A stretch of DNA of 64,000 bases from an uncultured Candidatus Saccharibacteria bacterium (GCA_964574145.1 CAZNKJ010000001.1:16852-80851), one strand, 5' to 3'. Positions 747 to 49,328 are shown, numbered from the stretch's first letter. Translations and numbers: made by a program. Notes: generated by a model from the sequence alone, not told the origin.

Positions 747-814
747 ATTTACAGTATGTCTTTAAGTATGCCAAGAATAGAGAAGAAAGGGAACTCTTTC
801 TATAGGAGATCTTA

Positions 815-1123: not shown

Positions 1124-1125
1124 AA

Positions 1126-2976: not shown

Positions 2977-2984
2977 ACTGTTTT

Positions 2985-3632: not shown

Positions 3633-3772
3633 AAATATATGTGATACATGTATCTCATACCATCTTTGTAATTTTATTGATGGATTGTCTCTTAATCAAT
3701 CGGAGATACAATCTATATTATCACGAAGGTTGTTTGACTCAGTCGTACTTATTAACGTATTTTGTAGCTTAC

Positions 3773-4201: not shown

Positions 4202-4288
4202 AAGTGGATAGATATCAAGTAATAGTTAACAATATATTTTTTAAGTATACCATGACCTTTTTAAGACCAAATATAAACGTAGTAGGTT

Positions 4289-4825: not shown

Positions 4826-4849
4826 GTCTTAAAAAAGTTAAGTTTAGTT

Positions 4850-7096: not shown

Positions 7097-8529
7097 AAGG
7101 AGTTCTGAGAGGTGTTATTAGTTGAACCACATTCGGCAATGGCGGTATTGATGTTGGTTTGAAGTGATTTCATTTCTTGGATTATACTAGCACTTTCTTT
7201 TCGTGCGATTCTAATATCTGCTTCTGTGCGCAAAGCGCCGCTGGTTTGTAGGTCAAGAAATGGTTGTATCGCAGTTTTAAGGTCGTTTGGGTTTGAAGCT
7301 GTTGATATTTCTGTCTGTATAGTATTAAGATTTTGAAGTCTTTGTTCTGAGAGAGTCGCTTTTTCTGATATGGAATTTTTTCTCAATAAAATAGTTGAGG
7401 TAAATAGCCCTGTTTTAATAGGGTCACATGTGCTTAGTGTCGCATTTAGTTTTTCTGTTGAGAGAATTGTACTTAAACTGCTGAGTACGGTGTTTTTGTA
7501 AGTCTCTTCAATTTTAATAGCTGAGCTAATCTCTTTAGAGACAGTTTCTTTAGCTTTGTTTAAAATCTTATTAGTGGCTGTGGAATCTGCTCGTAGTCGT
7601 GAGGTGTACGAAGGTTGTCCATTTTGGTTTTGGCTAAGTCCGAAGAGTCCACCTGACCCGCTAAGTGCTTGTTGTGTAAGTTGAGTAAGAAGAGCCCCTA
7701 TTATTTCATCAATTTCATCTGCGACTATTAATCTGTTACGTCCTGAGTCAAGGGTGTCGTTAAGCTGTGACTCAATAACCTTGCCTGGGGTAACTACAGG
7801 ACAGTTTGCTGTGCTGATGGAGTCGGTGGCTCCCGATCCGCCACATTCTTTCCAGGAAAGAAAACCATTTCCCCAGTCAAGGAGTTTTAATTCACGACCT
7901 CTTGCATTTACAATACGAGCATTAAGGCTTTCAGAAGCTTGAAGATATCTTGAATAAGGATTATCTTGCACAGTCAATTCATACCACCCATCCCACCCCC
8001 CTGATTCAAAGTTTCCGGATAAAAAATTATCTATATTATTAACCACATTACTAAGACGGCACTCTATCGTTTTGCCAAAAGAAGAATTGTAATTTATAGC
8101 AAGGGCTCGGCGTATCTGTAGTTGAAATGGGTCACACAATAAACCAAGCTCAGTTCCTTCTATGAAGGAACCAGCAACTTTATCTGAAATATCAGTAAGG
8201 AAACCCCCTAAGTCAGTAACAAATGCCGGATTACCGTCAAAACCAGAGTTTATCCAGTTAACAATATTATGAGACATTTCTTGTATCACAATATTTGCTA
8301 TAGCCCACCCAATTTTATCTAAGGCATATTCTTTTACAACAAGTGTTTGGCTACCACTTGCAGAAATAGCAGTAAAGCCAGTAATTTGAGATATGAAGCC
8401 AAGTTGCGGTCCCACTTCAGTGGTGGGAATGGCCTCAGCTTTTTTGTATGGATATAGTAAAAAAACTGAAGTTAGTAGGGTTAGTGCCAGTAGAGAAATA
8501 AATTTTTGTTTGTGTGCAGAGTGTATCAT
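7093..8529 (-). CDS. Secreted hypothetical protein (signal peptide); candidate T4SS surface or channel component
   Basis: 478 aa with the signal peptide MIHSAHKQKFISLLALTLLTSVFLLYPYKKAEA. An ATGA start/stop overlap with the upstream gene suggests translational coupling. Confidence 0.45.
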   Translation of the reverse strand: MIHSAHKQKFISLLALTLLTSVFLLYPYKKAEAIPTTEVGPQLGFISQITGFTAISASGSQTLVVKEYALDKIGWAIANIVIQEMSHNIVNWINSGFDGNPAFVTDLGGFLTDISDKVAGSFIEGTELGLLCDPFQLQIRRALAINYNSSFGKTIECRLSNVVNNIDNFLSGNFESGGWDGWYELTVQDNPYSRYLQASESLNARIVNARGRELKLLDWGNGFLSWKECGGSGATDSISTANCPVVTPGKVIESQLNDTLDSGRNRLIVADEIDEIIGALLTQLTQQALSGSGGLFGLSQNQNGQPSYTSRLRADSTATNKILNKAKETVSKEISSAIKIEETYKNTVLSSLSTILSTEKLNATLSTCDPIKTGLFTSTILLRKNSISEKATLSEQRLQNLNTIQTEISTASNPNDLKTAIQPFLDLQTSGALRTEADIRIARKESASIIQEMKSLQTNINTAIAECGSTNNTSQNSL

Positions 8530-8534
8530 CGTAT

Positions 8535-9524
8535 TTAAAAAGGCAGATTGTTTAATAAGTATCCATCTTCGTTTTTATTGAAAGTTATATTTTTTTGCGT
8601 GAAATAGGTCTGCATATTTTTTAAAGATTGTGCTGTTTTTGCTGAATCAGTAGTATATTTTTTAAGCTTTACTAAAGCCTGCAACGGGTCAATAAATAGG
8701 TTTCTAAGGCTGGTTAAAGAATCATACAGAGAAGAAATATTATTTATAAGCTCGAGATGGATATTTACAGCACTATTTGGTGTAGGTACAGCAAGAAGAT
8801 TGTCCACAATGTCTTTATAGCTCTTTAGGATAGAGTCTAGTTTCTTTAGCTCATTTGGTTTGTTCCCAATCACCGCTTTTTCAACAATATCAAGCGCTCG
8901 TTCTCTTCCAGAATTTCCATATATTTTCAATACAGAACCCATTTGATTTCCAAAAGTTCTTATAGTTTCTGGAGTTTCCTTAACAACTATAATATCATTT
9001 ATATTATATATTGTTGGGGTGGTAGAGAGGATTTTTTTAGCTTTTTCTAAAAGAATTTTTGTTTGTGTAGGGTCTTTTAGTTTTCCAGATTTACGCAAAC
9101 TCATATAATCAGTGAAAAATTGTTGTGAAAAAATCTCAGTAGAGTTTAAAGAAGTAGAATCTTTAGTAAGAGGTGCTACTTTTACATTTAGGTAGTCATC
9201 GGGACCTTTTTTGAGTGGGTTTCGATTTAGATCCACCTCTTCTCCATCTTTTGTGCCATCACCGTCTGTGTCGGGATTGTTTGGGTCTGTATTCCATAGT
9301 GTCTCTTCCCAATCAAGCAAGCCGTCTTTGTCACGGTCATTATTTCTAAGTTTTTTTTGGAGAACACCAGTTATATTTTTTTCCGCGAAATCTGTTTGAA
9401 TATTTTTGTTGAGAGCAGAGCTTTTTGAAGTATGGAATGATAAATATAGAAAAATTGCAAAAACAAAGAGCGTTAACAGCCCCCCTGCGGCAAATATTCT
9501 AATTGTGCGTGGTAATAATTGCAA
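8535..9524 (-). CDS. Membrane-anchored protein with thrombospondin-type-3-like Ca-binding repeats; first gene of the T4SS-like operon
   Basis: An N-terminal TM segment (IFAAGGLLTLFVFAIFLYL) is followed by the repeats DKDGLLDWEE...DTDGDGTKDGEEVDLNRNP, which fit the DxDxDG pattern. Confidence 0.5.
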   Translation of the reverse strand: MQLLPRTIRIFAAGGLLTLFVFAIFLYLSFHTSKSSALNKNIQTDFAEKNITGVLQKKLRNNDRDKDGLLDWEETLWNTDPNNPDTDGDGTKDGEEVDLNRNPLKKGPDDYLNVKVAPLTKDSTSLNSTEIFSQQFFTDYMSLRKSGKLKDPTQTKILLEKAKKILSTTPTIYNINDIIVVKETPETIRTFGNQMGSVLKIYGNSGRERALDIVEKAVIGNKPNELKKLDSILKSYKDIVDNLLAVPTPNSAVNIHLELINNISSLYDSLTSLRNLFIDPLQALVKLKKYTTDSAKTAQSLKNMQTYFTQKNITFNKNEDGYLLNNLPF

Positions 9525-9620
9525 AATAATACCCCCTTATTACCTTTTTAGTATACCGCACCTTAGCATTAGAGCTATGTGTGATTAATAAGAAATGTTG
9601 AAAAATGGATGTAAAATATT

Positions 9621-10418
9621 TTATCTTTTTTTAAAATGGCGCGTAATTTGTATCCAATTCTCAAGACTGATATCCTCAGCTCGTACATTGCTTGGAATAT
9701 TGAGTTTATGAAACATGGCTGTTAATAGTTCAGGTTTAATCAGAGATTTAAGATTACTTTTTAAAAATTTTCTTTTTTGTGCAAAACCTGTTTTAACCAC
9801 TTCAAAAAAAAATCTCTCATTTATGTCAGCAAGTTTTTTGTTATTTATATCTTCTATCATTAAAACTGCAGAAGAAACGTTGGGTTCTGGTCGAAAAGCT
9901 TTTTTCCCCACAGTTCGTATGTATTTAGGAGAGCCGAATGCTTTAACAGATATAGACAGAACACTTTCTTTTTCACCTAATGAGTGCCCCACTATCCTTC
10001 TAGCCACCTCCTTTTGAAGAAGAAACACTATCATCGTTGGTTTTATTTTTCCACTTAAAAAGGTTCTCAGTAGTTCACCTGTAATATAGTAAGGAATATT
10101 CGCAATAAGTTTAAAAGGATGTTTGGAAAAATGATATTTTTTTAAATCAACATCTCGCACATCTGCGATTATAAGTTCTAAAAAGCCAGAATCTATTTCG
10201 TTTTTAAATTGCGTAGATATTTTTTCAGCTAAGATAGGGTCTTTTTCAATAGTGGTTACATGGCCTGCGTATTTTAAAAGCTCTTTTGTTAGCATCCCTT
10301 TACCAGGTCCTATTTCAAGCACATAGTCGTTTTTTTTTAATTTCCCTGCTGCCACTATAGAAGCTAGAACTTTTTTGTCTTTTAGAAAGTGTTGTCCTAG
10401 TCGGGCTTTTGTTTTCAT
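9621..10418 (-). CDS. rsmA: 16S rRNA (adenine1518/1519-N6)-dimethyltransferase RsmA/KsgA
   Basis: GQHFL-D motif and the EIGPGKG SAM-binding motif; length 265 aa. Confidence 0.9.
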   Translation of the reverse strand: MKTKARLGQHFLKDKKVLASIVAAGKLKKNDYVLEIGPGKGMLTKELLKYAGHVTTIEKDPILAEKISTQFKNEIDSGFLELIIADVRDVDLKKYHFSKHPFKLIANIPYYITGELLRTFLSGKIKPTMIVFLLQKEVARRIVGHSLGEKESVLSISVKAFGSPKYIRTVGKKAFRPEPNVSSAVLMIEDINNKKLADINERFFFEVVKTGFAQKRKFLKSNLKSLIKPELLTAMFHKLNIPSNVRAEDISLENWIQITRHFKKR

Positions 10419-10498
10419 GTCTTAGATTTAGTTATGAGTGTAATGTAATGAATATTTCAGATGTTTTTGGACTCTTATTAGGAGTGAAATGAGTATAA

Positions 10499-12451
10499 TT
10501 AATCTATATATACCACGCTTCCACTCTCTTCCCCACTCCACTCTATAGTTTCTGTGTACACATCATCAATGTCGGTGATAAACTCTGACGGGATGTTTAT
10601 TTTCCGTGACCCAAAGATAGTTCTTATAGATGTGTAAGTAAGAAAGAGCTTTTTCTTTGCACGGGTTAAGGCTACATAAAAAAGACGTCGTTCCTCTTCT
10701 TCGTCAATACGCTCCGCTGAAATTTTTTTGTGAGGGAATAAGCCTTCTTCAAGTCCTGTGATAAATACAGTATCAAATTCCAATCCCTTAGACGCATGGA
10801 CTGTCATTAATTTTACAGCGTCTTTTTCTTCTTTTATTTCATCTTGGTCTGTCGCAAGAGCGGCGTCTTCTAAAAGTTTCTCCACTCCTTCTTCAGGGGT
10901 GAGAGTGTCGTATCGCATAGCAAGAGTTACTAATTCATGTATGTTTTCCAGACGTTCTTGTTCGTCACTTGTTCCTTTACGTAAAACTTCTTCCAGCCCA
11001 CTCTTTTTAAGTACAAACAAAATAGTTTTAGATATCGGCTGTGTTTGTGCGCACTCTCGTATTTGAGTCAAAAGATTTTGAAATTCAGCTACATTTTTCT
11101 TGGCTCGTGGTGAAAGGAGGTCTTCTCTGTGGGTAGTTATTTTAAGCAGTGTTACTTTCCCAATACCACGCGGAGGAACATTTACTATACGTTTTATGTC
11201 ACTTAGACTTTCTGGGTTAATGGCGACGCGTATAAAGGAGAGAATGTCTTTCACTTCTTTACGTTCAAAAAAACGGACACCCAATACTTGGTATGGGACC
11301 TCGTTTGCTAGAAAGGCTTCTTCAAGTGCGCGTGATTGAAAATTTGCTCTATACAAAACAGTAATGTCTTTTGCAGAGGTACCAGCGCTGATTTCTTTCA
11401 AAGATTGTTTTGCTATAAAAATAGCTTCTGCGTTTTCATCGTAAACAGATACCAAGGCAACTTTCTCCCCTTTTGGGTTGTCGGTAAATAATTTTTTCTC
11501 TTTCCTCTGTTTATTTTTTTGTATAATAGTATTTGAAACTTCCAATATTGTTTTGGTGGATCTATAATTTTGTTCTAAAAGAAGAGTTGTCGTTTTTGGA
11601 TATTTTTTTTCAAACGCAAGGATATTGTCAATATTGGCTCCCCGCCAGCTGTATATATTTTGATCTATATCTCCAACAACACAAATATTATTTTTAGGTG
11701 CTGTAAGAGTATGTGCTATACGGCATTGTACCAAGTTTGTGTCTTGGTACTCATCGATATGAATATATTGCCATAGACTTCTATAGTGGTTTCGAATATT
11801 CTCATTTTTAATAAGCAGATTCAATGTTTTTAGAAGAAGGTCGTCAAAATCAAGAGCTTTTTCGTTAAATAAGATTTTTTCATATTCTTTCCATACTGAA
11901 ATAATTGTACGGGGGTAAAAACCACTATTATTTTTTTCATATGATTCTAATGTTAAAGCGTTCCCCTTAGCTCGTGAAATAGAGCTTAATATTTTACGTG
12001 GCTCAAACTGTTTAGGGTCTACCCCAACAATTTTTGTTGCTTCTTTTATTGCGCGGATAGAGTCATTTCGATCAAAGATCGTAAATGAGCGTGGGAGTCC
12101 CAGAATCTGCGAATTAGACCTGAGGATTTGTACACCCAATGCGTGGAAAGTTGAAATGAAAGGAACCCCTCTTCTTTTTTCAATATTTTCATGGGAGTTT
12201 CTTGACTGGAGTAGTTCTAATACTCTTCCACGCATTTCTTTTGCCGCTTTGTTTGTAAAAGTGACAGCCAGAATGTTTTCTGGAGATACACCATTGTGGA
12301 CAAGATTCAGGATTCTGTGTGTGATAACTCTGGTTTTTCCAGCACCAGCACCAGCTAAGATTAGAAGAGGTCCGTTTCTATGCAAAACAGCCTTTTTTTG
12401 TTCCTCGTTAAGGTTTTTCATGTTTAATATAGAGACATCATACCATGTCAC
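10499..12451 (-). CDS. pcrA: UvrD/PcrA-family ATP-dependent DNA helicase
   Basis: The N-terminus LNEEQKKAV...LILAGAGAGKTRVITHRI carries the Walker A motif. Length is 650 aa with helicase motifs throughout. Confidence 0.9.
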   Translation of the reverse strand: MTWYDVSILNMKNLNEEQKKAVLHRNGPLLILAGAGAGKTRVITHRILNLVHNGVSPENILAVTFTNKAAKEMRGRVLELLQSRNSHENIEKRRGVPFISTFHALGVQILRSNSQILGLPRSFTIFDRNDSIRAIKEATKIVGVDPKQFEPRKILSSISRAKGNALTLESYEKNNSGFYPRTIISVWKEYEKILFNEKALDFDDLLLKTLNLLIKNENIRNHYRSLWQYIHIDEYQDTNLVQCRIAHTLTAPKNNICVVGDIDQNIYSWRGANIDNILAFEKKYPKTTTLLLEQNYRSTKTILEVSNTIIQKNKQRKEKKLFTDNPKGEKVALVSVYDENAEAIFIAKQSLKEISAGTSAKDITVLYRANFQSRALEEAFLANEVPYQVLGVRFFERKEVKDILSFIRVAINPESLSDIKRIVNVPPRGIGKVTLLKITTHREDLLSPRAKKNVAEFQNLLTQIRECAQTQPISKTILFVLKKSGLEEVLRKGTSDEQERLENIHELVTLAMRYDTLTPEEGVEKLLEDAALATDQDEIKEEKDAVKLMTVHASKGLEFDTVFITGLEEGLFPHKKISAERIDEEEERRLFYVALTRAKKKLFLTYTSIRTIFGSRKINIPSEFITDIDDVYTETIEWSGEESGSVVYID

Positions 12452-12756: not shown

Positions 12757-13764
12757 TTGAGCTTAGTTTTATTGAGCTTCTTTTTTGTATTTCCTGTGTC
12801 CGCTAATGCAAATATTTTTTCATACATATCTTCTTTTTTGTTTCCCAAAGATCAAGCGGCTCAAACAAACACCGCAGCTTCTTTAAATTCTCAAACTATT
12901 CCGCTTTTGCGCGCCGCTCTAAATATTGACCCAAATCCATCAAAAGGAGGAGGGGGTATCCTAATTGTAGGAGGAGTTTCTCTTTTATCAGAGACAGGTC
13001 CTTCAGGTACTATTGCTGATATTGAAGAAAGTCCTGCAACTTCAGACCAAATAAGTGTTTATGTTGTTCGTGAAGGAGATACTCTGTCTCAGATTGCGAG
13101 TATGTTTGGAGTTTCTGTAAATACCATAAGATGGGCAAATAATATTCGTTCTTCAAAAAGTATTCATGAAGGACAAACTCTTGTGATTCTTCCTATTTCT
13201 GGTGTTAGACATACTGTGGTAAAGGGAGACACTCTAAAGAGTATTACAAAAAAATATGATGGAGATTTAGGTGATGTGCTGAGTTATAACAATCTTACTA
13301 AAGATTCCCCGCTTGTAATTGGAAATATTGTAGTAATACCAAACGGAGAAGTTCCTGCACCAAAAGGTTCTATATATAAAAAGAAAAGGACTTCCCGCAT
13401 TGTTTCTAATGGTCCATTATATAAAGGTTATTACATAAGGCCTGTTAAGGGGGTTCGCACACAGGGGATCCATGGATATAATGCTGTTGATATGGGGGCA
13501 CCAAAAGGTACGCCAATCGTTGCTTCTGCTTCGGGTAAGGTTATCGTGAGCAGAAATGCTGGGTGGAATGGTGGATATGGAATTTATATTGTAATCAAAC
13601 ACAGCAATGGTACTCAGACACTTTATGCGCATAATAGCCGTAATATTGTATATACGGGAAATTCAGTGATCCAAGGACAAGTGATTGGATACATTGGCTC
13701 AACAGGACGTTCAACAGGACCTCATGTTCATTTTGAAGTCAGGGGCGCACGCAATCCATTCTAG
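12757..13764 (+). CDS. Secreted LysM-domain M23 metallopeptidase (cell-wall hydrolase)
   Basis: Signal peptide present. Two LysM repeats (YVVREGDTLSQIASMFGVSVNTIRWAN and HTVVKGDTLKSITKKY). The C-terminal M23 motifs are HNGTQTLYAHN...GYIGSTGRSTGPHVHFEV. The start is apparently TTG. Confidence 0.85.
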   Translation: MSLVLLSFFFVFPVSANANIFSYISSFLFPKDQAAQTNTAASLNSQTIPLLRAALNIDPNPSKGGGGILIVGGVSLLSETGPSGTIADIEESPATSDQISVYVVREGDTLSQIASMFGVSVNTIRWANNIRSSKSIHEGQTLVILPISGVRHTVVKGDTLKSITKKYDGDLGDVLSYNNLTKDSPLVIGNIVVIPNGEVPAPKGSIYKKKRTSRIVSNGPLYKGYYIRPVKGVRTQGIHGYNAVDMGAPKGTPIVASASGKVIVSRNAGWNGGYGIYIVIKHSNGTQTLYAHNSRNIVYTGNSVIQGQVIGYIGSTGRSTGPHVHFEVRGARNPF

Positions 13765-13888: not shown

Positions 13889-15442
13889 TCACATCACTTG
13901 GTTATTTTTTGGGCGATACTGCAGGGCTTCAAGCATATGGTCCGTTTCAATAGAATCTTTTTCACTTAAGTCTGCAATAGTTCGCGCAAGCTTAATGACT
14001 CTATGATAAGCGCGAGGAGACAGATCAAGTTTAGTTGCTGCTTGGTTAAGTAGCTCGCGAACCTGTCTATTTAAGATAATAAAATTATCTATATTTTTAA
14101 TTCCCAGTTCACTATTTGTGTTGATGTCTTTATTTAAATCTGTAAAACGTTTTTGTTGTAAAGCACGGGCTTTTACAACCTGATTTGCCATTTTAAAAGA
14201 CTCTCCTTTTGTTTTTTCCTCAGAAAGTTTTTTATAGTCAATAAGTGAAACTTCAATCCACATATCTATGCGGTCTACTATTGGCCCAGATATTTTTTTT
14301 CTGTAGCGTTCAAGTGAAAGAGGTGAGCAGTTGCATTGTTTGTTGCTACCAAAATTACCGCAAGGACATGGGTTTAGAGCAGCTATTAGAATAAAATTAG
14401 CGGGAAAGTGAGCTGTCCCTTTTGATCGAGCTATTGTTATAGATCTTTCTTCTAATGGCTCGCGTAGAGATTCAATCACCCTTCTGTCAAATTCTGGAAA
14501 TTCATCAAGAAAAAGAACTCCACGATGTGCCAGAGTGACCTCTCCTGGGCGTGGTACAGTACCTCCTCCTACTATTGATACGTATGAAGACGTGTGATGG
14601 GGTGATCTAAAAGGAGGAGATGTTACGAGGTTGTTTTCTAATGCTCCGGCAATAGAGTGGATACCTGTGGTTTCAAGTACAGCTTCTAGATTAAGGGGTG
14701 GAAGAATTGATGTAAAAGCGCGTGCAAGCATTGTCTTTCCAGTACCAGGAGGTCCATAAAGGGCGATATTATGGCCGCCAGATGCGGCAATCAGAAGACC
14801 CCTTTTTGCAGTTTCTTGCCCTCTAATATCATCCATTTCAACAGAGTAAGGTGGAGTAATATAGGATATTTTTGTTTTCTTATGTGGAGAAAGTATCTTT
14901 TGTACACCTTCCCCATCTTTCTTTTTTAGATTTAAATGATCAATAAGTTCACGAAGTGTCTGTACTCCGTAAACTTTGATCCCTTTGACAAGAGATCCTT
15001 CCTTTGCATTTTTAAAAGGTAGGAATATTTCCTTGAACCCATTCTTCTTCGCATTTAAGACAAGCGGTAAAATCCCACGAATAGGTTGTAATTCTCCATC
15101 AAGAGAAAGCTCCCCAAGGAATATCTTTTTTTCTGGATCAAAGGTTATATCTCCAGTAGCAAGTAGATAAGCAAGAGCTATTCCAACGTCAAAAATCGGA
15201 CCTTCTTTTTTAAGATTAGCGGGAGCCAGAGAGATGACTACTTTTTGATTTTTACTTTTAGGAGAATCATAACCTGTATTTTTTATTGCAGCCGAAACGC
15301 GATCTTTAGATTCCTCAACAGCTTTATCAGGAAGACCTACAAGTGAAAAAGCGTGGAGTCCTCGCGAGAGGTCAATTTCTATAGAAATGGTTTGAGCTTT
15401 AAGAATGGAAGTCTGCGCACTGTATACTTTTGCAAAGCTCAT
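13889..15442 (-). CDS. comM: YifB/ComM-family Mg-chelatase-like AAA+ ATPase
   Basis: An N-terminal Lon-like domain, Walker A GPPGTGKTMLA, and a C-terminal Mg-chelatase subunit ChlI-like region; 517 aa. Confidence 0.85.
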   Translation of the reverse strand: MSFAKVYSAQTSILKAQTISIEIDLSRGLHAFSLVGLPDKAVEESKDRVSAAIKNTGYDSPKSKNQKVVISLAPANLKKEGPIFDVGIALAYLLATGDITFDPEKKIFLGELSLDGELQPIRGILPLVLNAKKNGFKEIFLPFKNAKEGSLVKGIKVYGVQTLRELIDHLNLKKKDGEGVQKILSPHKKTKISYITPPYSVEMDDIRGQETAKRGLLIAASGGHNIALYGPPGTGKTMLARAFTSILPPLNLEAVLETTGIHSIAGALENNLVTSPPFRSPHHTSSYVSIVGGGTVPRPGEVTLAHRGVLFLDEFPEFDRRVIESLREPLEERSITIARSKGTAHFPANFILIAALNPCPCGNFGSNKQCNCSPLSLERYRKKISGPIVDRIDMWIEVSLIDYKKLSEEKTKGESFKMANQVVKARALQQKRFTDLNKDINTNSELGIKNIDNFIILNRQVRELLNQAATKLDLSPRAYHRVIKLARTIADLSEKDSIETDHMLEALQYRPKNNQVM

Positions 15443-23305: not shown

Positions 23306-24082
23306 ATGAAACTGATATCTTGGAATGTTAATGGTTTGCGCGCAGTGTACCGCAAAGATAACTTGAAGGATGTTTTTGAGCACGATCCAGATATTCTTTG
23401 TCTTCAAGAAACCAAATCTTCTCCAGATCAGTTGTCTCCAGATCTCAAAAACATTAAAGGATACACTAGTTATTTTTCGTCTTCTGTGGTGAAAAAAGGT
23501 TACAGCGGAGTTGGTTTTTATATGAAAAAAAAGCCTGATTTGATTAAGTATGGTATGGGCATAGAAGAATTTGATCAAGAAGGACGTTTTATTGAAGCTC
23601 GATATGGGGATCTCGTATTTCTTAATATATATTTTCCTAACGGAGGGCAAGGCGCAGTCCGTTTAGAGTATAAGTTGCGTTTTTATGATGCATTTTTCGA
23701 GTATATTCAAGAATTACGAAAACAAAGTAAAAGTATCGTTTTTTGTGGGGACGTAAATACAGCTCATGAAGACATAGATCTTGCTCGTCCAAAAGCAAAT
23801 GAAAAAAATACAGGATTTCTTCCAGAAGAGCGAGCGTGGCTCGATGAAATAATTCGCAATGGTTACTCAGACTCTTTCCGTTATAAATATCCTAATAAAA
23901 AAGAAGCGTATACCTACTGGGATCTCAAGATGCGGAATAGAGACCGTAACGTTGGTTGGCGACTTGATTATGTATTTATATCAGCCGATTTAGAGGACAG
24001 CCTTAAAAAAGCTTTTATCTTAAACGATATATATGGCTCAGACCACTGTCCTGTGGGGATTGAGACGGAGCATAATCTGTAA
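23306..24082 (+). CDS. xth: Exodeoxyribonuclease III / AP endonuclease
   Basis: MKLISWNVNGLRA...DILCLQETK...SDHCPV, the hallmarks of the ExoIII (EEP) family. Confidence 0.9.
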   Translation: MKLISWNVNGLRAVYRKDNLKDVFEHDPDILCLQETKSSPDQLSPDLKNIKGYTSYFSSSVVKKGYSGVGFYMKKKPDLIKYGMGIEEFDQEGRFIEARYGDLVFLNIYFPNGGQGAVRLEYKLRFYDAFFEYIQELRKQSKSIVFCGDVNTAHEDIDLARPKANEKNTGFLPEERAWLDEIIRNGYSDSFRYKYPNKKEAYTYWDLKMRNRDRNVGWRLDYVFISADLEDSLKKAFILNDIYGSDHCPVGIETEHNL

Positions 24083-24336
24083 AGGACATATCCACAGACA
24101 TGTCCTTTACATGTCCTTTACGTTACTTATAATGAATACAGATTCGGAGTACTGTTTATTCTGATATAAGTTCTTTTTGTTCTTTGCGAAATCCCCCTGT
24201 ACTACTGCATTAGGAAGTATTGTGCATATGTAATGAGTCACTCAGTTGTGCTATAAGCCTACATCTTCAATTAACTTTTATCTTTAGAGGCTTTAGCTCA
24301 CACTCATTAGATTTGTAGAATTTCTTTCTAAAAAAT

Positions 24337-24408: not shown

Positions 24409-25880
24409 ACCCAATATTTATCACGTATTTTTTTTACCTCAACTTCTTCAATTTGTTCTCTTTTTTCCTTACCCTTTTCCCCAAGTTTTTTTAGATTAAT
24501 TTCAGATAATGAAAGTAATTCAAGAGCTCTTTTTTCCATATATTCAGCCGTATTTTTGGAGGGATCATCCAGTACTTCCTCAAGGAGAGCATGAAGAACA
24601 TGCCCAATTTTAGGTCCAGGTCTTTCGTTTGAAATTTTAATTACCTCGTCTCCATCTATAGCCAGCATTGAGACATTGATAGGGTCGCGTAATACTTCTT
24701 CAACCATAGATTTATATTTTCTAAATCTAAAAGGCTGTTCTTTTGGTCTTCCTGTTCCGATACGATCACAAATACGTAGATCTAATAAGTTCCAAATATT
24801 TTCCTTACCAATATTTCGGATAGTTCGCCGTACTGCAGACAGTGTAATTTTTTCTGGATCGGAAAAAAACATGTGCCAGCGTATTAATTTAACCACGGTG
24901 TCTGTAGTGTTTTTTGGAAAATGTAGGTTTTTGAGTGCGGAATGTGCGACTCTGGCGCCGACTACTTCATGTCCGTGAAAGGTCCAATCTTTTTTTTCTT
25001 CTGACCATCTTCGAGTTTCTGGTTTTGATATATCGTGAAAAAGACCTGCAAGACGTAGCTCAAATGACCATTTTTTGTCTGCCGCATGTTGAAGTGTTCG
25101 TAGGTTATGTTCAAATACGCTGAATTTATGTGCTTGATTTTGATTTATATCAACACCACGTTCTATATCTTTTGATATATATTTCAAAACCCCTAATTTG
25201 TGGGCTATGATAAGCGCCTGCATTGGCTCATCGGAATTTAAGATTCGAATGAATTCATCACGAATTCTCTCTTTTGATATACACCTTAACAGATCTGCGT
25301 TTTTTTCAATAGCATTCATTGTTTCTCCTTCGATAACGAAACCGAGTTCTGCAGAAAGTCTAATTCCTCGTAACATACGTAGAGCATCTTCTTTAAATCT
25401 CTCATCAGGATCCCCTACTGCTACGAGAAGTTCGCGCTCCAGGTCTTCCTGTCCTTTATAAAGGTCAATAATTTGTCCTTTAGAAACGTTGTATACTATT
25501 GCATTTACTGTGAAGTCCCTTCTTTTGAGATCGTCTTTTAGACTTTTACTAAAAGAGACAGAATCGGGATGTCTGGAGTTTGAGTAACCAGTTTCTACTC
25601 TGTATGGAGTCACTTCTATTACCTTAAGTCTTGAATCACTAACATCTTCGTTAATAATACCAACTGTTCCATAATTATTTTCATAAAAAGTATTATGAAA
25701 TATGCTTTGAATATCTTCTGGATGGGCATCTGTAGTAATATCCCAATCCTTAGGTTCTTTTCCCAATAATAAATTACGCACACACCCTCCGACTAGAAAC
25801 GCCTCAAAACCGGCCTTTTCCAGGCTTTCTGTTACTTGTGAAACCTCTTTTGGGATAGAAAATGGAAGCTTTTTTAACAT
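24402..25880 (-). CDS. cca: CCA-adding tRNA nucleotidyltransferase with a C-terminal HD domain
   Basis: GGCVRNLLLG...DWDITTD pol-beta NT motif with an HD domain (HDISK); 492 aa. Confidence 0.9.
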   Translation of the reverse strand: MLKKLPFSIPKEVSQVTESLEKAGFEAFLVGGCVRNLLLGKEPKDWDITTDAHPEDIQSIFHNTFYENNYGTVGIINEDVSDSRLKVIEVTPYRVETGYSNSRHPDSVSFSKSLKDDLKRRDFTVNAIVYNVSKGQIIDLYKGQEDLERELLVAVGDPDERFKEDALRMLRGIRLSAELGFVIEGETMNAIEKNADLLRCISKERIRDEFIRILNSDEPMQALIIAHKLGVLKYISKDIERGVDINQNQAHKFSVFEHNLRTLQHAADKKWSFELRLAGLFHDISKPETRRWSEEKKDWTFHGHEVVGARVAHSALKNLHFPKNTTDTVVKLIRWHMFFSDPEKITLSAVRRTIRNIGKENIWNLLDLRICDRIGTGRPKEQPFRFRKYKSMVEEVLRDPINVSMLAIDGDEVIKISNERPGPKIGHVLHALLEEVLDDPSKNTAEYMEKRALELLSLSEINLKKLGEKGKEKREQIEEVEVKKIRDKYWVK

Positions 25881-26019: not shown

Positions 26020-26365
26020 GAGAGTAAGAGAAGATTTATTTGGAAACTGGGAAATGACAAGTATCTCAAGAAAGATGCTTAAAATTGGGGGATAAGTTTT
26101 GAGTAATTAGATATATAAAGTGGTGTATCTGTGGATTATATAGAGCAGAAATGAAAACACTAGATAAGGTATACGTAGAAAGTCTGTAATAGTGCTATTT
26201 TTCTAGTGTATATGTGAATGAAAATAGAAATGAGGGTTGTTTAAAAGTAATTTCTCCTAGAAATGAAGTTCCTGTTTCTTACAGTCTTGGTAGATTAGAG
26301 AATTGGTGTCCTCAAAACAGTCGCTATAGATCACTAGTTTTTTAATATATTTTTTTAATTTAAAC

Positions 26366-26394
26366 TTGACGAAAAAAACGTCAAGTAATATACT
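26366..26394 (+). promoter_or_regulatory. Consensus-like sigma70 promoter whose -35 is part of a palindrome (TTGACG-A7-CGTCAA); 17-bp spacer; -10 TATACT
   Basis: TTGACGAAAAAAACGTCAAGTAATATACT lies ~23 nt upstream of the likely ATG (26417) of the wHTH regulator. Confidence 0.45.
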
Positions 26395-26416
26395 GCTAAA
26401 TATAGTGTATAGAGTT

Positions 26417-27304
26417 ATGATTTCAAATTCAAATTCAAATTCAGAAGAAGATGTCAATAAAAAGGATGGCGAAACAGGAGATTTCTCTGCAGAGCGGTTA
26501 AAAATCTTTGGACTAACAGATATTGAGATAAAAATAGTTCTGTGTCTACTGAATGTGGGTCCGTATGGAGTTAGTAAGATTTCACGTGTAACAGATATTC
26601 CGCATACTTCAATTCATTCCGCTATTCGCCGTCTTAAAAAACAAGGGTTGGTTAGGCGGGTCTCGTGTGGGTATTCTAGTGTATGGGAGGTTGTTGGTTT
26701 GGAGAAAATATATAAGAATATTGCCCACTCTCTTGAGTTATTCGAACATTCTCCACCTCAGGAGAGTTTGAACGAGCAAACAGACGCTAATGTTTCAGGT
26801 GAAACACCTTTTCAAGTATTTAAAGGGGTGGAATCTGTCTTGAGGGTATATCAGTGGTTTTTTCTTAACCATTATGGCGAAGTCGTACGAGAGGTACAGG
26901 ATTCAGAGTCGTTTAAGAGCCTTACTACAGTTCTTGGAAAAGAAATGATGGTTCAACTGAGTGATTTTAAGATAATAAACCATACCCGCTCTGAAATCAT
27001 TGTCGAAGAGCCCTTTTTGGATGTATTTAACACATACGCGAAGATAAATAGCCTATGGTTTGCGAAATTAAAGAATAGTGATTTCTTAATAAGGACTGTC
27101 TCTAGAAAAAATCTTGAAAAGAATGTGCATATGATAATTGCCCATAATTCAGCGATAATTATAGATTGGGATAGTATGACCTTAGAGCTAGTTAAGAAAT
27201 CTAGTTTACATAAGTTATTATGTGTATTTTTTCAAAATTTAAATACAGTAAGTGAGCCTCTTAACCAGCCTTATTCTGGTTATCTATTTGAGGAAAAAGA
27301 GTAA
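26417..27304 (+). CDS. Winged-helix (TrmB/MarR-like) transcriptional regulator with a C-terminal uncharacterised domain
   Basis: HTH region DIEIKIVLCLLNVGPYGVSKISRVTDIPHTSIHSAIRRLKKQGLV. The in-frame ATG at 26417 is preferred over the upstream TTG. Confidence 0.55.
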   Translation: MISNSNSNSEEDVNKKDGETGDFSAERLKIFGLTDIEIKIVLCLLNVGPYGVSKISRVTDIPHTSIHSAIRRLKKQGLVRRVSCGYSSVWEVVGLEKIYKNIAHSLELFEHSPPQESLNEQTDANVSGETPFQVFKGVESVLRVYQWFFLNHYGEVVREVQDSESFKSLTTVLGKEMMVQLSDFKIINHTRSEIIVEEPFLDVFNTYAKINSLWFAKLKNSDFLIRTVSRKNLEKNVHMIIAHNSAIIIDWDSMTLELVKKSSLHKLLCVFFQNLNTVSEPLNQPYSGYLFEEKE

Positions 27305-27343: not shown

Positions 27344-27414
27344 GCGGCTATGGTTAAGTGGTATAACACGTCCTTGCCAAGGATGAGTCGGGAGTTCGAT
27401 TCTCCCTAGCCGCA
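27344..27414 (+). tRNA. tRNA-Gly (anticodon GCC)
   Basis: Acceptor GCGGCTA/TAGCCGC, anticodon loop TTGCCAA, and T-arm GGGAGTTCGATTCTCCC. No encoded CCA. Confidence 0.8.
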
Positions 27415-27456
27415 CAAAAATGATCATAAAAGACAAAAAATAGAAAGTTGTCCTTT

Positions 27457-27511
27457 ATATCCACAAGGTTATCCACAAATCGGTGAGTTTGCTCGTATAA
27501 TAAGTGGATAA
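27457..27511. promoter_or_regulatory. Cluster of three DnaA-box-like 9-mers (ATATCCACA, perfect TTATCCACA, and AGTGGATAA on the opposite strand) overlapping a TATAAT -10 element
   Basis: Direct read: tttATATCCACAaggTTATCCACAaatcggtgagtttgctcgTATAATaAGTGGATAAag, followed by ~180 bp of AT-rich DNA before yraN. Confidence 0.45.
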
Positions 27512-27702
27512 AGCTGTGTATTATTAAAAAGTCACTCAAAGTCAAACAAGAACCTGCCGTTGTTTATTTTTTGACTAAATGGCTTTAAATATGTGTAGAA
27601 TCTAGATTCTGGAGATTTTTTAATGTCTTTTATAAAAACATTCCATTATAGAGGATTGATTTAATTATATTATGTTACACATGAAAGCAATAATTATTTT
27701 CC

Positions 27703-28107
27703 ATGGGGAATAACTTTATTTCTACTGCAGAAGTGGGTGATTTGGGGGAGAGTATAGCTTGTAGATTTCTTACAGAAAAGGGTTTTGGTATAGTTACTCG
27801 CAACTATTGGAAAAAATGGGGAGAAATAGACATTGTAGCTGAAAAAAATGGAAAAATACATTTTATTGAGGTAAAAAGTGTTACATGTGAAAATGTTTCT
27901 TTGCAGGTAATGTTGAAAGCTTCAGAATATAGACCTGAAGAAAACGTGCATCCAAAAAAGCTAAAACGTATGCGCAGGGTTATACAATCCTACCTAATAG
28001 AGAAAAATATAAAAGAGGAAAGTTGGATTTTTGATGTTTTAATCGTAGAGATGGATATGAAGAATAGGGTCGCGAAGTGTCGTATGTTAAAGGACATTAT
28101 CCTTTAG
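27703..28107 (+). CDS. yraN: YraN-family (UPF0102) putative endonuclease
   Basis: GDLGESIACRFLTEKGFGIVTRNYW...GEIDIVAEKNGKIHFIEVKS, a PD-(D/E)xK-like YraN signature. Confidence 0.7.
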   Translation: MGNNFISTAEVGDLGESIACRFLTEKGFGIVTRNYWKKWGEIDIVAEKNGKIHFIEVKSVTCENVSLQVMLKASEYRPEENVHPKKLKRMRRVIQSYLIEKNIKEESWIFDVLIVEMDMKNRVAKCRMLKDIIL

Positions 28108-39047: not shown

Positions 39048-40118
39048 TTATTTTTTATCTTTCAATTCTTTTGTAATTTCTGTGTTTTCTAATAGCTGGA
39101 ATACTTTTTCGTTAGTTAATATTGTTTCTACATATACAACTACTCGATTAGGGTCTGCATCCTTGTGGTGTTCCAAAATATGTTTAGATTCTTTATCTAT
39201 TTCATCTTTTGGAATGTGGATATTTTCTTCCGCAGCGATAGCATTTAATATTAGTTGTAGTTTTGCGCGTTTTTTTGCATCTATTTCAAATTCTTTTCTA
39301 ATAGCATCTTCGGTTTTTTTAATATTTTTAATATAATCTTCAAATTTCATTCCCATTCGTTCAATGTCACTTTTTAATTGGGAGACCATTTTATCCAATT
39401 CACTTTCCACAAGGATTTTGGGGAGAAGGATTTCTGTTTTTTCTATTATTTTTTCTCCTATTTCGATACGAGTTTTTTCTTTCGCTTTGTGTTCTTTCTC
39501 GATTTTAAGATTTTCTTCAAGCTTTTTTTTGAAATCATCTATATTCTTAAAATCTCCAAATGATTTTACCAATTCTTCAGTCAAGACGGGTTTGGTTTTT
39601 TGTGGTTCATTCGTTCCAGTGTCTTTTTCTTTTTTTGTTTTATTCTGTAAAATTTGATTTATTACCTCGTCAATGTCTTGTTTTGTTACAAGAATAATTT
39701 CTTGTTTCTTGGTTACTTCGCCAGAAATTTTTTTATAATCTGGTAATATAATTTCTGGTAACACTGCAGTTTCAATAGTGAATCCTATTGGATTCCCAGG
39801 AGCTAATTTTGTTATTGTTACTTTAGGGCGTCCTATGGCTTTGATTTTGTGTTCCTCGATTATCTGTGGATAAATGTCTTGTAATGACAGTTCTGCAATT
39901 TGGTTTAGAATTATTTCTTCTGCTACATGTTTTGTAAGAATATGATCCGGAATATGTCCTTTTCTAAAACCAGGTATTTTCGCATCAGCACCTATTTTTT
40001 TGAGTACTTGCGTTCGATAAGTAGAAAAAACATCTTTTTGTATTTCTCCAGTAATTTTTAATTCAGAATCATCTTTTTTTACTATGGAGATATTATTATA
40101 AATAGACTTTGTAGACAT
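39048..40118 (-). CDS. tig: Trigger factor (short form)
   Basis: N-terminal ribosome-binding domain with GFRKGHIP, a PPIase-like middle and a C-terminal arm. Its position upstream of clpP is conserved. Confidence 0.85.
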   Translation of the reverse strand: MSTKSIYNNISIVKKDDSELKITGEIQKDVFSTYRTQVLKKIGADAKIPGFRKGHIPDHILTKHVAEEIILNQIAELSLQDIYPQIIEEHKIKAIGRPKVTITKLAPGNPIGFTIETAVLPEIILPDYKKISGEVTKKQEIILVTKQDIDEVINQILQNKTKKEKDTGTNEPQKTKPVLTEELVKSFGDFKNIDDFKKKLEENLKIEKEHKAKEKTRIEIGEKIIEKTEILLPKILVESELDKMVSQLKSDIERMGMKFEDYIKNIKKTEDAIRKEFEIDAKKRAKLQLILNAIAAEENIHIPKDEIDKESKHILEHHKDADPNRVVVYVETILTNEKVFQLLENTEITKELKDKK

Positions 40119-44495: not shown

Positions 44496-46247
44496 ATGCT
44501 TATTGGAGCAAAACAACTCAAGCGTTTTCTTGTGGATGCTGGTTTGGTATCTAACACTCAATTTGAGACAGCTGAAAAAGAAGCGAAAAAACATGACACA
44601 AGTGTGAGTGAAGAACTGGTGTCAAAAGGAGAACTTTCTGAGAACGACCTGAGGAGAGTTGAAGCTTATGTGTTGGGGATTCCTTTTGTTAGTTTAAAAG
44701 ATCGCAAGATAGAGTTTGAAGTACTTTCTCTTGTGCCAGAACCAATAGCTAGGAATAATAATATTATTCCTTTTAAAAAAGGGGATGGGGTGCTTGAGGT
44801 AGCGATGCTTAACACTGATGATTTAGAATCCATTGATTTCATAAAGAAAAAAACAGGGCTAAAGATCTTACCTAGATTAACCGACACTGAGTCTATAAAG
44901 CATGCGCTAATTCAGTATCAGAAAACTCTAAAAGATGAATTTGGAGATTTGATTGAGAGGGAGGCAGGAGAGCTTAAAGAAATTCCTGAAGGTGAGGATA
45001 AGGAAATGTCTGAAGGCGATCTAAAAAAGCTCGCAGAAGATGTCCCTGTTGTGCGCATTGTTGATGCCCTCCTTAAGCATGCAATTATACAAAATGCTTC
45101 TGATATTCACATAGAACCGATGGAAAAAGAAGTTTTGGTAAGATACCGTATAGATGGAATATTGCATGACGCAATGACTCTTCCAAAGTCTGCTTCATCT
45201 TCAGTTAGCGCTAGAGTAAAAGTGCTTGCAAATTTAAAACTAGATGAGAAACGTCTTCCTCAGGACGGTCGGTTTAAAGTTGAGTCAAATAGTGAAAAAG
45301 TTTCTTTTCGTGTATCAGTTTTGCCAACATATTTTGGAGAGAAAATAGTAATGAGGCTTTTAAAAGAGAGTGTCTCTGGTTTTACACTAGAGAGTCTGGG
45401 TTTCCATGGGGAAGGGCTAGAGCGAATTTATCGAGCAACGAGGAAAAAAACCGGATTGATTTTAACTACAGGTCCGACTGGGTCAGGAAAGACAACAACT
45501 CTTTATACAATGCTTGATATTTTAAATACTCCAGAAGTAAATATTTCAACAATTGAAGATCCTATTGAGTATCAGATGCCCCGGATAAACCAAACACAGG
45601 TGCGTTCTGATATAGGGTTTTCTTTTGCGCAAGGCCTACGTTCTTTAGTTAGACAAGACCCAGATATTGTAATGGTCGGTGAGATTCGAGACACTGAGAC
45701 AGCCTCTTTGGCTATTAATGCTGCTCTTACAGGTCATCTGGTTTTTTCAACACTTCATACGAACTCTTCTGCTGGAGCCATTCCACGTCTTTTAGATATG
45801 GAAGCAGAAACTTTTCTTTTGGTATCTACTCTTGAGGTTATTATAGGTCAACGTCTTGTGCGACAATTATGCAAAGGGAAGATAGAACACAAACTTTCTG
45901 ATGAGGAAATTAAAGTGCTTGGAGAGTCTGTAGATTTAGATGCCGTTCTGAAGACTCTAAAAGAAGAAAAAATTATTTCAAAAACTGCAGAATGGGAAGA
46001 TGTCTCCTTTTATAAGCCAAAAGAGACAGCAGAGTGCAAAGATGGTTTCAAGGGACGGATTGGTATTCATGAAGTTCTTGATGTAACGCAGTCTATTCGT
46101 AATTTAGTTATGAGTGGAGCTACTACAAAAAAGATAGAAGAACAGGCAAAAAAAGAGGGAATGTTGACTATGATTGAGGACGGTATTTACAAAGCAGCAA
46201 AAGGGATCACTTCTATTGAAGAAGTTTTGCGAGTAGTGTCCGAATAA
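44496..46247 (+). CDS. pilB: Type IV pilus / type II secretion assembly ATPase (GspE/PilB family)
   Basis: N-terminal GSPII_E_N-like domain, Walker A GPTGSGKTTTL, Asp-box and His-box (LVFSTLHTNSSAGAI), and tetra-Cys-like region. Confidence 0.9.
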   Translation: MLIGAKQLKRFLVDAGLVSNTQFETAEKEAKKHDTSVSEELVSKGELSENDLRRVEAYVLGIPFVSLKDRKIEFEVLSLVPEPIARNNNIIPFKKGDGVLEVAMLNTDDLESIDFIKKKTGLKILPRLTDTESIKHALIQYQKTLKDEFGDLIEREAGELKEIPEGEDKEMSEGDLKKLAEDVPVVRIVDALLKHAIIQNASDIHIEPMEKEVLVRYRIDGILHDAMTLPKSASSSVSARVKVLANLKLDEKRLPQDGRFKVESNSEKVSFRVSVLPTYFGEKIVMRLLKESVSGFTLESLGFHGEGLERIYRATRKKTGLILTTGPTGSGKTTTLYTMLDILNTPEVNISTIEDPIEYQMPRINQTQVRSDIGFSFAQGLRSLVRQDPDIVMVGEIRDTETASLAINAALTGHLVFSTLHTNSSAGAIPRLLDMEAETFLLVSTLEVIIGQRLVRQLCKGKIEHKLSDEEIKVLGESVDLDAVLKTLKEEKIISKTAEWEDVSFYKPKETAECKDGFKGRIGIHEVLDVTQSIRNLVMSGATTKKIEEQAKKEGMLTMIEDGIYKAAKGITSIEEVLRVVSE

Positions 46248-46272
46248 GAGTGGTAATAAACTTTTTATTTTT

Positions 46273-47493
46273 ATGAAAAAATTTATATATACGGCAACAA
46301 ACACTAATGGAGAAGCTTATACACGTACAGTTGAGGCGAAAGATAGATTTGAAATATATGATTTGGTCCGAAAGGAAAACGGGACGATTGTTTCTATTAA
46401 AAAAGCTGGAAGCTTTTTTGGAGGTGGTTTTTTTAGCAAAGCGGATGCTTTTTTGGGGACAGTAAAAGAGGCAGAAAAAATAATCTTTGCAAGGAATGTT
46501 TCTACTATGATCAAGTCTGGGTTACCGCTGTCTAGGACCCTAGATGTTATGATACGCCAGACAAAAAATAAAAAATTTAAAGAAATCTTACGAGCTATTA
46601 TTAAGGATATAAATGCAGGAGAATCCTTATATACTGCTCTTGGGAAATTTCCAAAAGTATTTTCTCCGCTTTTTGTATCTATGGTTAAGGCTGGTGAAGA
46701 AAGCGGAAAGCTCTCAGAAACTTTTTTAGTAATTGCTCACCAAATGGAAGAGGCTTATTCTCTAAAACGTAAAATACGTGGGGCACTTATATATCCATCG
46801 ATTATATTAATAGCGATGTTTATTATAGGGATACTAATGATGATGTTTGTGGTACCAACGCTTTCGTCAACTTTTGAAGAACTCGGAGCAGACCTTCCGA
46901 AGTCTACCCAAGTAATTATCTTTATAAGTGGTTTTCTTGTAAATAACACATTGATATCGTTGCTTAGTATTGTTGCTGTGTTTTTTGGTTTAATTGTGGC
47001 GTTACGCACAAAACGTGGTAAACGTATGGTAGATTTTATTATCTTGCGAGTGCCAGTTATTTCGGAGTTGGTTAAGGAGACTAACTCTGCTCGTACAGCT
47101 CGGACACTTTCCTCTCTATTATCTGCGGGAGTTGGAATTGTTTCTTCTTTTTCTATTACACAAGATGTTTTACAAAATTCTTACTATAAGGATGTTCTAA
47201 AAACCGCAAAAACTAACGTAGAAAAAGGTAGCCCCATTGCCCAAGTTTTTGTGGAAAATACTGATATATATCCAGTAATGGTGGGCGATATGATTTCAGT
47301 AGGTGAAGAGACGGGACAACTTTCGCAAGTTCTTATGGAGGTAGCAGATTTTTACGAGGAGGATGTTTCTCAGAGGACAAAAGATCTTTCCACAATTATA
47401 GAGCCTTTTCTTATGATAATAATAGGTACAGTGGTTGGTTTTTTTGCTATTTCAATGATTACTCCTATTTATTCAATTTCGGGAAGTATTTAA
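46273..47493 (+). CDS. pilC: Type IV pilus platform protein (GspF/PilC family)
   Basis: 406 aa with a duplicated T2SS_F-domain architecture and 3-4 TM segments. Confidence 0.85.
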   Translation: MKKFIYTATNTNGEAYTRTVEAKDRFEIYDLVRKENGTIVSIKKAGSFFGGGFFSKADAFLGTVKEAEKIIFARNVSTMIKSGLPLSRTLDVMIRQTKNKKFKEILRAIIKDINAGESLYTALGKFPKVFSPLFVSMVKAGEESGKLSETFLVIAHQMEEAYSLKRKIRGALIYPSIILIAMFIIGILMMMFVVPTLSSTFEELGADLPKSTQVIIFISGFLVNNTLISLLSIVAVFFGLIVALRTKRGKRMVDFIILRVPVISELVKETNSARTARTLSSLLSAGVGIVSSFSITQDVLQNSYYKDVLKTAKTNVEKGSPIAQVFVENTDIYPVMVGDMISVGEETGQLSQVLMEVADFYEEDVSQRTKDLSTIIEPFLMIIIGTVVGFFAISMITPIYSISGSI

Positions 47494-47497
47494 GAGA

Positions 47498-49249: not shown

Positions 49250-49328
49250 TCATATGTATAAGAATAAAAAATCTACCAATCCGCGTTTTTTACTTTTCTT
49301 TGTAAAAGAAAGGATGTCTTCTATAAGT

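Follow-up and report, generated by a model that had tools for sequence, protein, structure and literature searches.

A conserved DnaA-box cluster joined to parS-type palindromes upstream of yraN in Paceibacteria, outside the canonical dnaA-dnaN origin

The analysed stretch of DNA, 64,000 nucleotides long and referred to here as the window, contains a 288-bp spacer between a tRNA-Gly gene and yraN in which DnaA-box-like 9-mers lie close together. The features of this spacer and of its borders are as follows:

27344-27415, plus strand: tRNA-Gly(GCC), conserved to the left of the module
27428-27456, minus strand: hairpin inverted repeat AAAAGACA-N13-TGTCCTTT, from the sequence, a motif scan, an RNA fold and a profile match
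27457-27465, plus strand: DnaA box ATATCCACA, 8/9 match
27469-27477, plus strand: DnaA box TTATCCACA, perfect
27472-27501, plus strand: sigma-70-like promoter TCCACA-18-TATAAT, consensus match 10/12, aimed at yraN
27503-27511, minus strand: DnaA box TTATCCACT, 8/9 match, convergent with both plus-strand boxes
27515-27523, minus strand: weak DnaA box TAATACACA, 7/9 match (2 mismatches)
27512-27702, no strand: A+T-rich spacer from the boxes to the yraN start, 73.8% A+T
27703-28107, plus strand: yraN (UPF0102 endonuclease), to which the module is linked in 80/80 relatives

The whole cluster comprises three boxes with at most one mismatch and one weak box, spanning 67 bp. An earlier, sequence-only reading had noticed three boxes here, one of them inverted, and we recovered them at 27457 (plus), 27469 (plus) and 27503 (minus). 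Its view that such clustering is not expected by chance was borne out: nowhere else in the 64-kb window do three boxes (at most one mismatch) come within 60 bp, and first-order Markov simulation of the window failed to reproduce this density in any of 300 runs. Across the window there are 25 boxes with at most one mismatch, a slight excess over the 17.8 +/- 3.7 of shuffled sequences. Since this total is barely above the shuffles, the non-random part is the clustering. Another perfect TTATCCACA, at 39865-39873 on the minus strand, lies inside the trigger-factor gene without other features of the module and is probably a chance match.

The AT-rich stretch described after the boxes was found as well; it measures 191 bp, and its A+T content of 73.8% (62.6% in the window) places it in the top 0.8% of 191-bp windows. 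The boxes had been said to overlap a TATAAT, which proved inexact: the TATAAT at 27496-27501 only abuts the minus-strand box. On the other side, the box core is flanked by the hairpin at 27428-27456, for which the RNA fold gives -6.1 kcal/mol (z = -3.4) and which may double as the terminator of the tRNA-Gly transcript.

YraN homologues place the window in the CPR class Paceibacteria (Kaiser-, Nomura-, Taylor-, Yonath-, Wolfebacteria and similar groups). The comparison set consisted of 80 yraN loci, each with 10 kb on either side, taken from species-representative genomes. A box is present within 950 bp in all 80, and in 74 of them a box with at most one mismatch lies within 450 bp upstream of yraN. 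The perfect TTATCCACA occurs at 64 of the 80 loci, as against 2.3% expected from background density, and is found without exception on the strand opposite yraN. This invariant element is the universal high-affinity DnaA box. Because they are conserved in 80 genomes, the boxes are almost certainly real DnaA sites.

Anchored on the box, the loci share a 40-nt core, aAAacTGTGGATAAcTaTGTgggtAttGTTtATAAAGgacA, which upstream of yraN takes the form TGTGGATAA-3-TGTnnnnAt-tGTtTATAA-AGGACA. Its three boxes share one orientation and sit at offsets 0, 12 and 21; one is strong and two are weaker, and the weaker ones retain the TGT...ATAA positions. A small hairpin, AAAGGACA-N10-14-TGTCTTTT, usually follows the core in relatives. 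The distance from the core to the yraN start codon is 165-330 bp, and in some genomes the core directly adjoins the 3' end of a tRNA gene. Synteny is kept in the order xerC-xth-cca(-)/tRNA-Arg/tRNA-Gly/module/yraN(+)/tRNA-Pro/tRNA-Gly(TCC), with the two upstream tRNAs varying in orientation; where cca has been relocated (L022, L029), the module is still found with yraN.

The tRNA set Arg(TCG), Gly(GCC), [yraN], Pro(TGG), Gly(TCC) is itself maintained (L005-L084, locus positions ~9400-10700). Both the upstream and the downstream pair flip in order or orientation between genomes, which indicates repeated small inversions around the module. Between divergent tRNAs the spacer has 79-89% A+T. Rfam searches of the spacer, at gathering and at permissive thresholds, returned tRNAs only and no known RNA family.

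To place the window's cluster within this pattern, a module profile built from 68 relatives was searched against the window with nhmmer. The best match lies on the minus strand (27484->27430, E = 7.5e-6), where the reverse complement reads TGTGGATAA-cct-TGTGGATAT-AAAGGACA-N14-TGTCTTTT. The profile match and this reading together identify the plus-strand boxes and the 27428-27456 hairpin as an inverted form of the conserved core that lacks one weak box. The counterpart of the invariant 'box 1' (TGTGGATAA on the opposite strand) is the box at 27469, and the box at 27457 is the second box of the core, inverted relative to yraN here. The box at 27503, at -200 relative to the yraN ATG, is placed and oriented like box 1 of relatives, and the 3 bp that separate it from the box at 27515 equal the box 1-box 2 spacing of their core. 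We take the minus-strand boxes at 27503 and 27515 to be a degenerate direct copy at the canonical position, and the window's core copy is degenerate as well. Convergent box pairs about 27 bp apart occur in at least nine relatives (L032, L036, L042, L054, L057, L070, L077, L082 and others).

Other segments of the window resemble the module in part. A second copy of the core after tRNA-Arg (26087-26138) was suggestive by eye but gave no match to the module profile, and we rejected it. The surrounding segment, 26020-26365, is a very degenerate look-alike, with GGGGGATAA at 26087, TGTGGATTA at 26130 and ATATAAAG between them; it may be a remnant from the insertion of a segment carrying a TrmB-like gene and tRNA-Gly. 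Further away, between the convergent genes xth and cca, a strong hairpin at 24078-24120 (AAAGGACATATCCACAGACATGTCCTTT, -16.8 kcal/mol) has the same GGACA/TGTCC arms as the module's hairpin. Its loop holds the DnaA-box-like ATATCCACA, and another TGTCCTTT repeat follows the hairpin.

The boxes are accompanied by a second kind of site. Between the core and yraN, 77 of the 80 loci carry the palindrome GTTTCACGTGAAAC, as a perfect 14-mer in 44. Flanking T and A extend the 14-mer to a 16-mer that is exactly the published consensus of chromosomal parS, TGTTNCACGTGAAACA (review PMC7022226). Just upstream of yraN the relatives have GTTTCACGTGAAAC and/or GTTACACATGTAAC, and the parS palindrome tGTTTCACGTGAAACa typically stands 125-160 bp from the box core. 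Sites with at most two mismatches to parS reach 2.09 per kb from -1500 to +500 of yraN and 0.034 per kb outside, a 61-fold difference; conserved positions also lie within yraN and in the 5' part of cca. The sequence-only reading saw the boxes but missed these palindromes, which change the identity of the locus. An interpretation of the palindrome as a LexA/SOS operator was dropped, the sequence being identical to parS.

From box 1 to the first parS the distance is 125-127 bp in 28 loci, followed by classes of 143-148 and 155-162 bp, whereas the parS-to-yraN distance varies from 7 to 220 bp. The constraint on the former and not on the latter argues that core and parS form one unit. Helical phasing between them was considered and rejected: p is about 1e-7 if related genomes are treated as independent and 0.29 on unique distances.

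In the window, the following parS-like sites (none assigned to a strand) surround the cluster:

25831-25844: GTTACTTGTGAAAC, 11/14, in the 5' part of cca, at a site conserved in the cca of relatives
26579-26592: ATTTCACGTGTAAC, 12/14, inside the TrmB-like ORF
26792-26805: tGTTTCAGGTGAAACa, 15/16 to TGTTNCACGTGAAACA, the best in the window, inside the TrmB-like ORF
27674-27687: GTTACACATGAAAG, 11/14, degenerate, in the spacer just upstream of yraN
27880-27893: GTTACATGTGAAAA, 11/14, inside yraN

Five of the six parS-like matches of the 64-kb window thus fall within 2.1 kb (25.8-27.9 kb). These copies are degenerate, one matching at 15/16 and the others at 11-12/14. The best of them, tGTTTCAGGTGAAACa, is a Streptomyces-type parS variant read on the other strand. 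At the place of the 27880 site, yraN +147 to +204, relatives have one or two near-perfect parS sites. The TrmB-like HTH ORF (26366-27304) is an insertion present in 2 of the 80 relatives. As for parS location, the several copies are origin-proximal, 33 kb from dnaA-dnaN.

Some of these sites coincide with coding sequence. In the yraN frame (window 27850-27900), GTT TCA CGT GAA AC encodes V-S-R-E-T/N, and a similar coincidence of peptide and DNA is seen in the TrmB-like ORF (26579, 26792). As the 'VSRE' stretch is specific to Paceibacteria YraN, it suggests that the protein sequence may accommodate the DNA sites.

Searches for the corresponding proteins (tblastn, a GERRxRA motif scan and phmmer) found no ParB or ParA in the window, in the adjoining public contig L165 or in 2.2 Mb of related yraN/dnaA loci; they covered about 160 Paceibacteria contigs around yraN and dnaA. 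No ParA/Soj or ParB/Spo0J is thus seen near the origin or the parS cluster, unlike in most bacteria, where parAB is origin-proximal. In the literature searched we came across nothing on ParB/parS in CPR.

The 64-kb window contains no dnaA, dnaN, parA or parB. The earlier observation that dnaA and dnaN lie outside it was confirmed, and both could be located to its left. A look-up of the TraG-like protein at the window's left edge led to L165, a contig of 16 kb that is 100% identical to window positions 1-4342 and runs 8.9 kb further left; look-ups with yraN or pnp returned short contigs only. On L165 lie jag-yidC-rnpA-rpmH and, transcribed away from them, dnaA and dnaN. Counted from the window, dnaA occupies -4125 to -5507 on the minus strand and the dnaA-dnaN spacer -5508 to -5791, the origin region being L165 8224-10134 (window about -3880 to -5791). 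The spacer, with the sequence ...TTATCCGTTTATCCACCTATCAACAcccccTAATAGTATTACAAT..., is laid out as tandem boxes TTATCCGTT-TATCCACC-TATCAACA, CCCCC, a trio-like TAATAGTATTACAAT and then A+T-rich DNA. Tandem boxes, a C-run, a trio run and A+T-rich DNA constitute the box-trio architecture.

In the joined 73-kb sequence (window plus L165 extension) the cumulative GC-skew minimum is at window -6692. Together with the dnaA-dnaN position this puts the origin about 33 kb from the cluster, although the cluster is the strongest DnaA-box group across the same 73 kb. The working origin is the canonical dnaA-dnaN box-plus-trio site, and the cluster at 27.5 kb is not oriC here. The possible oriC proposed for the cluster is therefore refuted by the very landmarks that the sequence-only reading had named as decisive, namely dnaA-dnaN and the skew minimum.

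Other observations agree in placing no origin at the cluster. Third-codon GC (GC3) skew in plus-strand terms stays above zero to the left and to the right of 27.5 kb, whichever way the genes point: for minus-strand genes it is +0.113 on the left (n = 16) and +0.118 on the right (n = 11), and regression yields a constant of 0.189 +/- 0.021, a strand term of 0.068 and a side term of 0.032 +/- 0.023. There is no change of sign at 27.5 kb, and the plus strand thus behaves as the leading strand throughout. Neither in the window nor in the modules of relatives are the boxes followed by a DnaA-trio array (a TAG/TAA-type run), and, given the orientation of the boxes, box-trio unwinding would need the A+T-rich stretch on their other side.

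The divergent gene layout, previously offered as an origin sign, has another explanation. The minus-strand block at 815-21654 is a conserved block upstream of dnaA and pointing towards it (27/27 related loci). It is also not uninterrupted as described, since a LysM/M23 peptidase gene (12757-13764) lies on the plus strand. Within the block, window 815-9524 carries a type IV secretion-like set (PrgI-like, TraC-like and TraG/VirB4-like ATPase genes and large unknown proteins). The PrgI-, TraC- and TraG-like genes are located 6-8.7 kb upstream of dnaA, in its orientation, at 27 of 27 loci with enough flank, so they would be head-on to forks leaving the origin. This set is a conserved chromosomal feature and not a mobile island.

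As an origin control we used 80 Paceibacteria dnaA loci (L093-L163 among those with the secretion-like set). The dnaA-dnaN pair is conserved in them, boxes lie in the dnaA-dnaN spacer, and in most of them TAA/TAG trio runs like TAATAGTAATAATAA come after the last boxes. In 95% of these loci dnaA-dnaN marks a switch in same-strand GC3 skew (right minus left +0.187). Within 10 kb of dnaA there is no parS, except in the L085/L014 lineage, where module and dnaA are on one contig, 8.7 kb apart. In L085 the skew has a V-shaped minimum at dnaA and the module is on the descending limb.

At the yraN loci of other relatives the picture is less simple. In 11 of 37, raw cumulative skew over the +/-10-kb locus reaches its minimum in the module spacer, at -735 to -199 from yraN and often between divergent tRNA genes. 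On average, same-strand GC3 also shifts across the module, right minus left, by +0.131 for plus genes (83% of loci) and +0.081 for minus genes (69%). The switch at dnaA is symmetric (L085), but this change is asymmetric: values are clearly below zero on the left flank and close to zero on the right. We did not accept an origin in relatives from raw skew, as gene orientation alone can give such skew, nor from the skew at the module, as the same picture would result from an intra-replichore inversion with one end at the tRNA cluster. To some extent these data allow for origin-like behaviour in other members of the class.

The cluster also touches a possible promoter. Its -35-like TCCACA (27472-27477) shares sequence with the perfect box, and the transcription start predicted for it is inside the next box. 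No sigma-70 promoter over the core was reproduced in the relatives L044, L051 and L014, so this geometry is specific to the window among those checked, and a conserved promoter was dropped from consideration. The earlier suggestion of DnaA control of yraN may hold in the window, where boxes cover a consensus match to promoter elements aimed at yraN, but this arrangement was not recovered in the three relatives. YraN has been described as the partner endonuclease of ComM that resolves the transformation D-loop (bioRxiv 10.1101/2024.02.06.579203). Given that the boxes bracket the promoter-like site and that YraN is reported to be a transformation nuclease, DnaA control of yraN would be a reasonable secondary role.

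A transformation toolkit is spread across the window (13889-15442, 44496-49931 and 56359-57864), including comM, which encodes the helicase partner of YraN, type IV pilus/T2SS-like genes and comEC. The com and pilus gene set fits DNA uptake as a core CPR function.

Taken together, we consider it moderately probable that the locus is a non-origin, origin-proximal DnaA-binding cluster integral to the lineage's parS centromere-like region beside yraN. DnaA binding, ParB binding and all functional consequences at the cluster are what we infer from the DNA sequence. DnaA binding is the economical assumption because the high-affinity box is invariant, the weak boxes keep their TGT...ATAA contacts and a canonical DnaA is encoded; the gene on L165 (8468-9850) specifies a standard DnaA with a C-terminal DNA-binding domain. 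The conserved non-coding module consists of a high-affinity box, two weaker boxes at fixed spacing, the hairpin, an A+T-rich spacer and one or two parS palindromes upstream of yraN. DnaA would dock on the perfect box and spread cooperatively over the adjacent weak boxes. In the window, the inverted core and the degenerate direct copy would make DnaA molecules face each other across the 25-bp spacer that holds the TATAAT. Rather than unwinding DNA, the complex would retain DnaA near the origin or modulate it there, like the B. subtilis clusters, Streptomyces D78 and E. coli datA/DARS. In this genome, bound DnaA would also occlude the promoter-like site aimed at yraN. As the cluster stands beside ParB-type sites, DnaA occupancy and the partition complex may in addition be linked, in the way reported for the centromere of Caulobacter. 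A bolder version, which we regard as rather unlikely, is a class-wide fused DnaA-box/parS unit of about 150 bp that would bring the initiator and the partition system (or another parS reader, should ParB be absent) onto the same DNA; DnaA might then license centromere function, or the unit might be an auxiliary or ancestral origin still firing in lineages in which skew polarity changes at it.

Several other explanations have to be weighed against the centromere-associated cluster. The simplest is a plain DnaA-controlled yraN promoter, repressed or activated, that would tie the nuclease to the replication cycle, with parS as an unrelated neighbour. The 10/12 match with its -35 in the perfect box and its start in the next one speaks for it, as does the fact that the module follows yraN where cca has moved (L022, L029); YraN as the ComM-partner nuclease, with comM, comEC and type IV pilus genes in the window, would provide a context. 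We nevertheless find it improbable, since relatives lack the promoter geometry over the core, and the core keeps its distance to parS and not to the yraN start, from which it is 165-330 bp away, sometimes abutting a tRNA 3' end. A functional origin, whether the real oriC, a second one or an ancestral one still firing in part of the class, would account for DnaA boxes next to a 74% A+T stretch and parS sites, and for the skew minima in 11 of 37 relatives and the GC3 shifts of +0.131 (83%) and +0.081 (69%). It is, however, very unlikely. This genome has its skew minimum and a box-trio origin 33 kb from the cluster, at dnaA-dnaN, and GC3 shows no switch at the cluster itself; in L085/L014, with both elements on one contig, the minimum is at dnaA. 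The cluster also has no trio array and its A+T side is wrong for the box orientation, while the 'V' loci are asymmetric and could be explained by gene orientation or by inversion at the tRNA cluster.

Finally, the 9-mers and palindromes might be operators of other lineage-specific DNA-binding proteins that merely resemble DnaA boxes and parS. This would agree with the failure to find ParB/ParA near yraN or dnaA loci, with a conserved core that reaches past the 9-mers (cTaTGT, ATAAAGGACA) and with the TrmB-like HTH gene beside the cluster in the window. We give this idea very little credence, because the invariant element is exactly TTATCCACA in 64 of 80 genomes, the weak boxes keep TGT...ATAA, this genome encodes a canonical DnaA, and the palindrome is exactly the 14-16-bp parS consensus; the TrmB-like gene, moreover, is found in only 2 of 80 relatives.

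Both components of the centromere-associated cluster are of already known kinds: DnaA-box clusters outside an origin, and parS sites close to one. In B. subtilis, the DnaA-box clusters (DBCs) near oriC hold back initiation and have genetic interactions with Spo0J/Soj (Okumura et al. 2012, PMC3245932). Like the cluster described here, they and Streptomyces D78 are intergenic, lie outside but near oriC, and stand beside ordinary genes; their proposed role is to hold DnaA and damp initiation. The present cluster differs in being joined to parS-type sites at a constrained distance, in keeping one syntenic position across a whole class and in having only three or four boxes. E. coli DARS1/DARS2 and datA likewise bind DnaA away from the origin. 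Of the three boxes in the DARS core, box I is oriented against II and III (review PMC5742627), and the window also has two boxes facing one or two opposite ones. The spacing differs here, and most relatives, unlike DARS, have three boxes in one orientation; no homology is implied.

Mera, Kalogeraki and Shapiro reportedly placed DnaA sites in the parS region of Caulobacter crescentus, several kb from the origin and with a role separate from initiation. The likeness is in DnaA sites within a parS region; the differences are another phylum and sequence context and, here, a fixed multi-box core beside parS. DnaA at that centromere is the subject of their 2014 paper, which is cited in PMC6667618. 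A canonical oriC shares with the cluster DnaA boxes that adjoin an A+T-rich stretch, whereas the cluster has no trio array and no skew switch and is not beside dnaA. The box-trio unwinding system itself (DnaA boxes plus DnaA-trios) was reportedly described by Richardson in 2016 and Pelliciari in 2021.

The parS-type sites resemble chromosomal parS (PMC7022226) in the identical palindrome, in occurring as several copies, many of them in coding regions, and in being origin-proximal. They are unusually dense (about four sites in 2 kb), are fused to a DnaA-box core and have no parAB nearby. In P. aeruginosa, oriCII upstream of gidAB-parAB provides an example of DnaA boxes outside the working origin that regulate transcription of a neighbouring segregation-linked locus (PMC13438810). 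Its target is the parAB operon itself, whereas the neighbours here are yraN and the parS sites. In the literature searched we found no class-wide syntenic DnaA-box/parS fusion at constrained spacing, in CPR and away from parAB.

CPR bacteria have genomes of 0.6-1 Mb and a mostly episymbiotic lifestyle, and we know of no experimental work on their replication timing or chromosome segregation. The dense parS cluster at tRNA-Arg/tRNA-Gly/yraN is the likely centromere of the class, and a high-affinity DnaA-box core is joined to it in about 80 genomes. If ParB is absent from Paceibacteria, the palindrome would be an orphan read by another protein. For origin prediction the locus is a caution, as the strongest DnaA-box cluster of a 73-kb region is not the origin. 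To our knowledge, the only signs of DnaA-ParB coupling so far are scattered genetic hints from work on Bacillus and Caulobacter; the module offers a short, synthesizable DNA element for in vitro work on this coupling.
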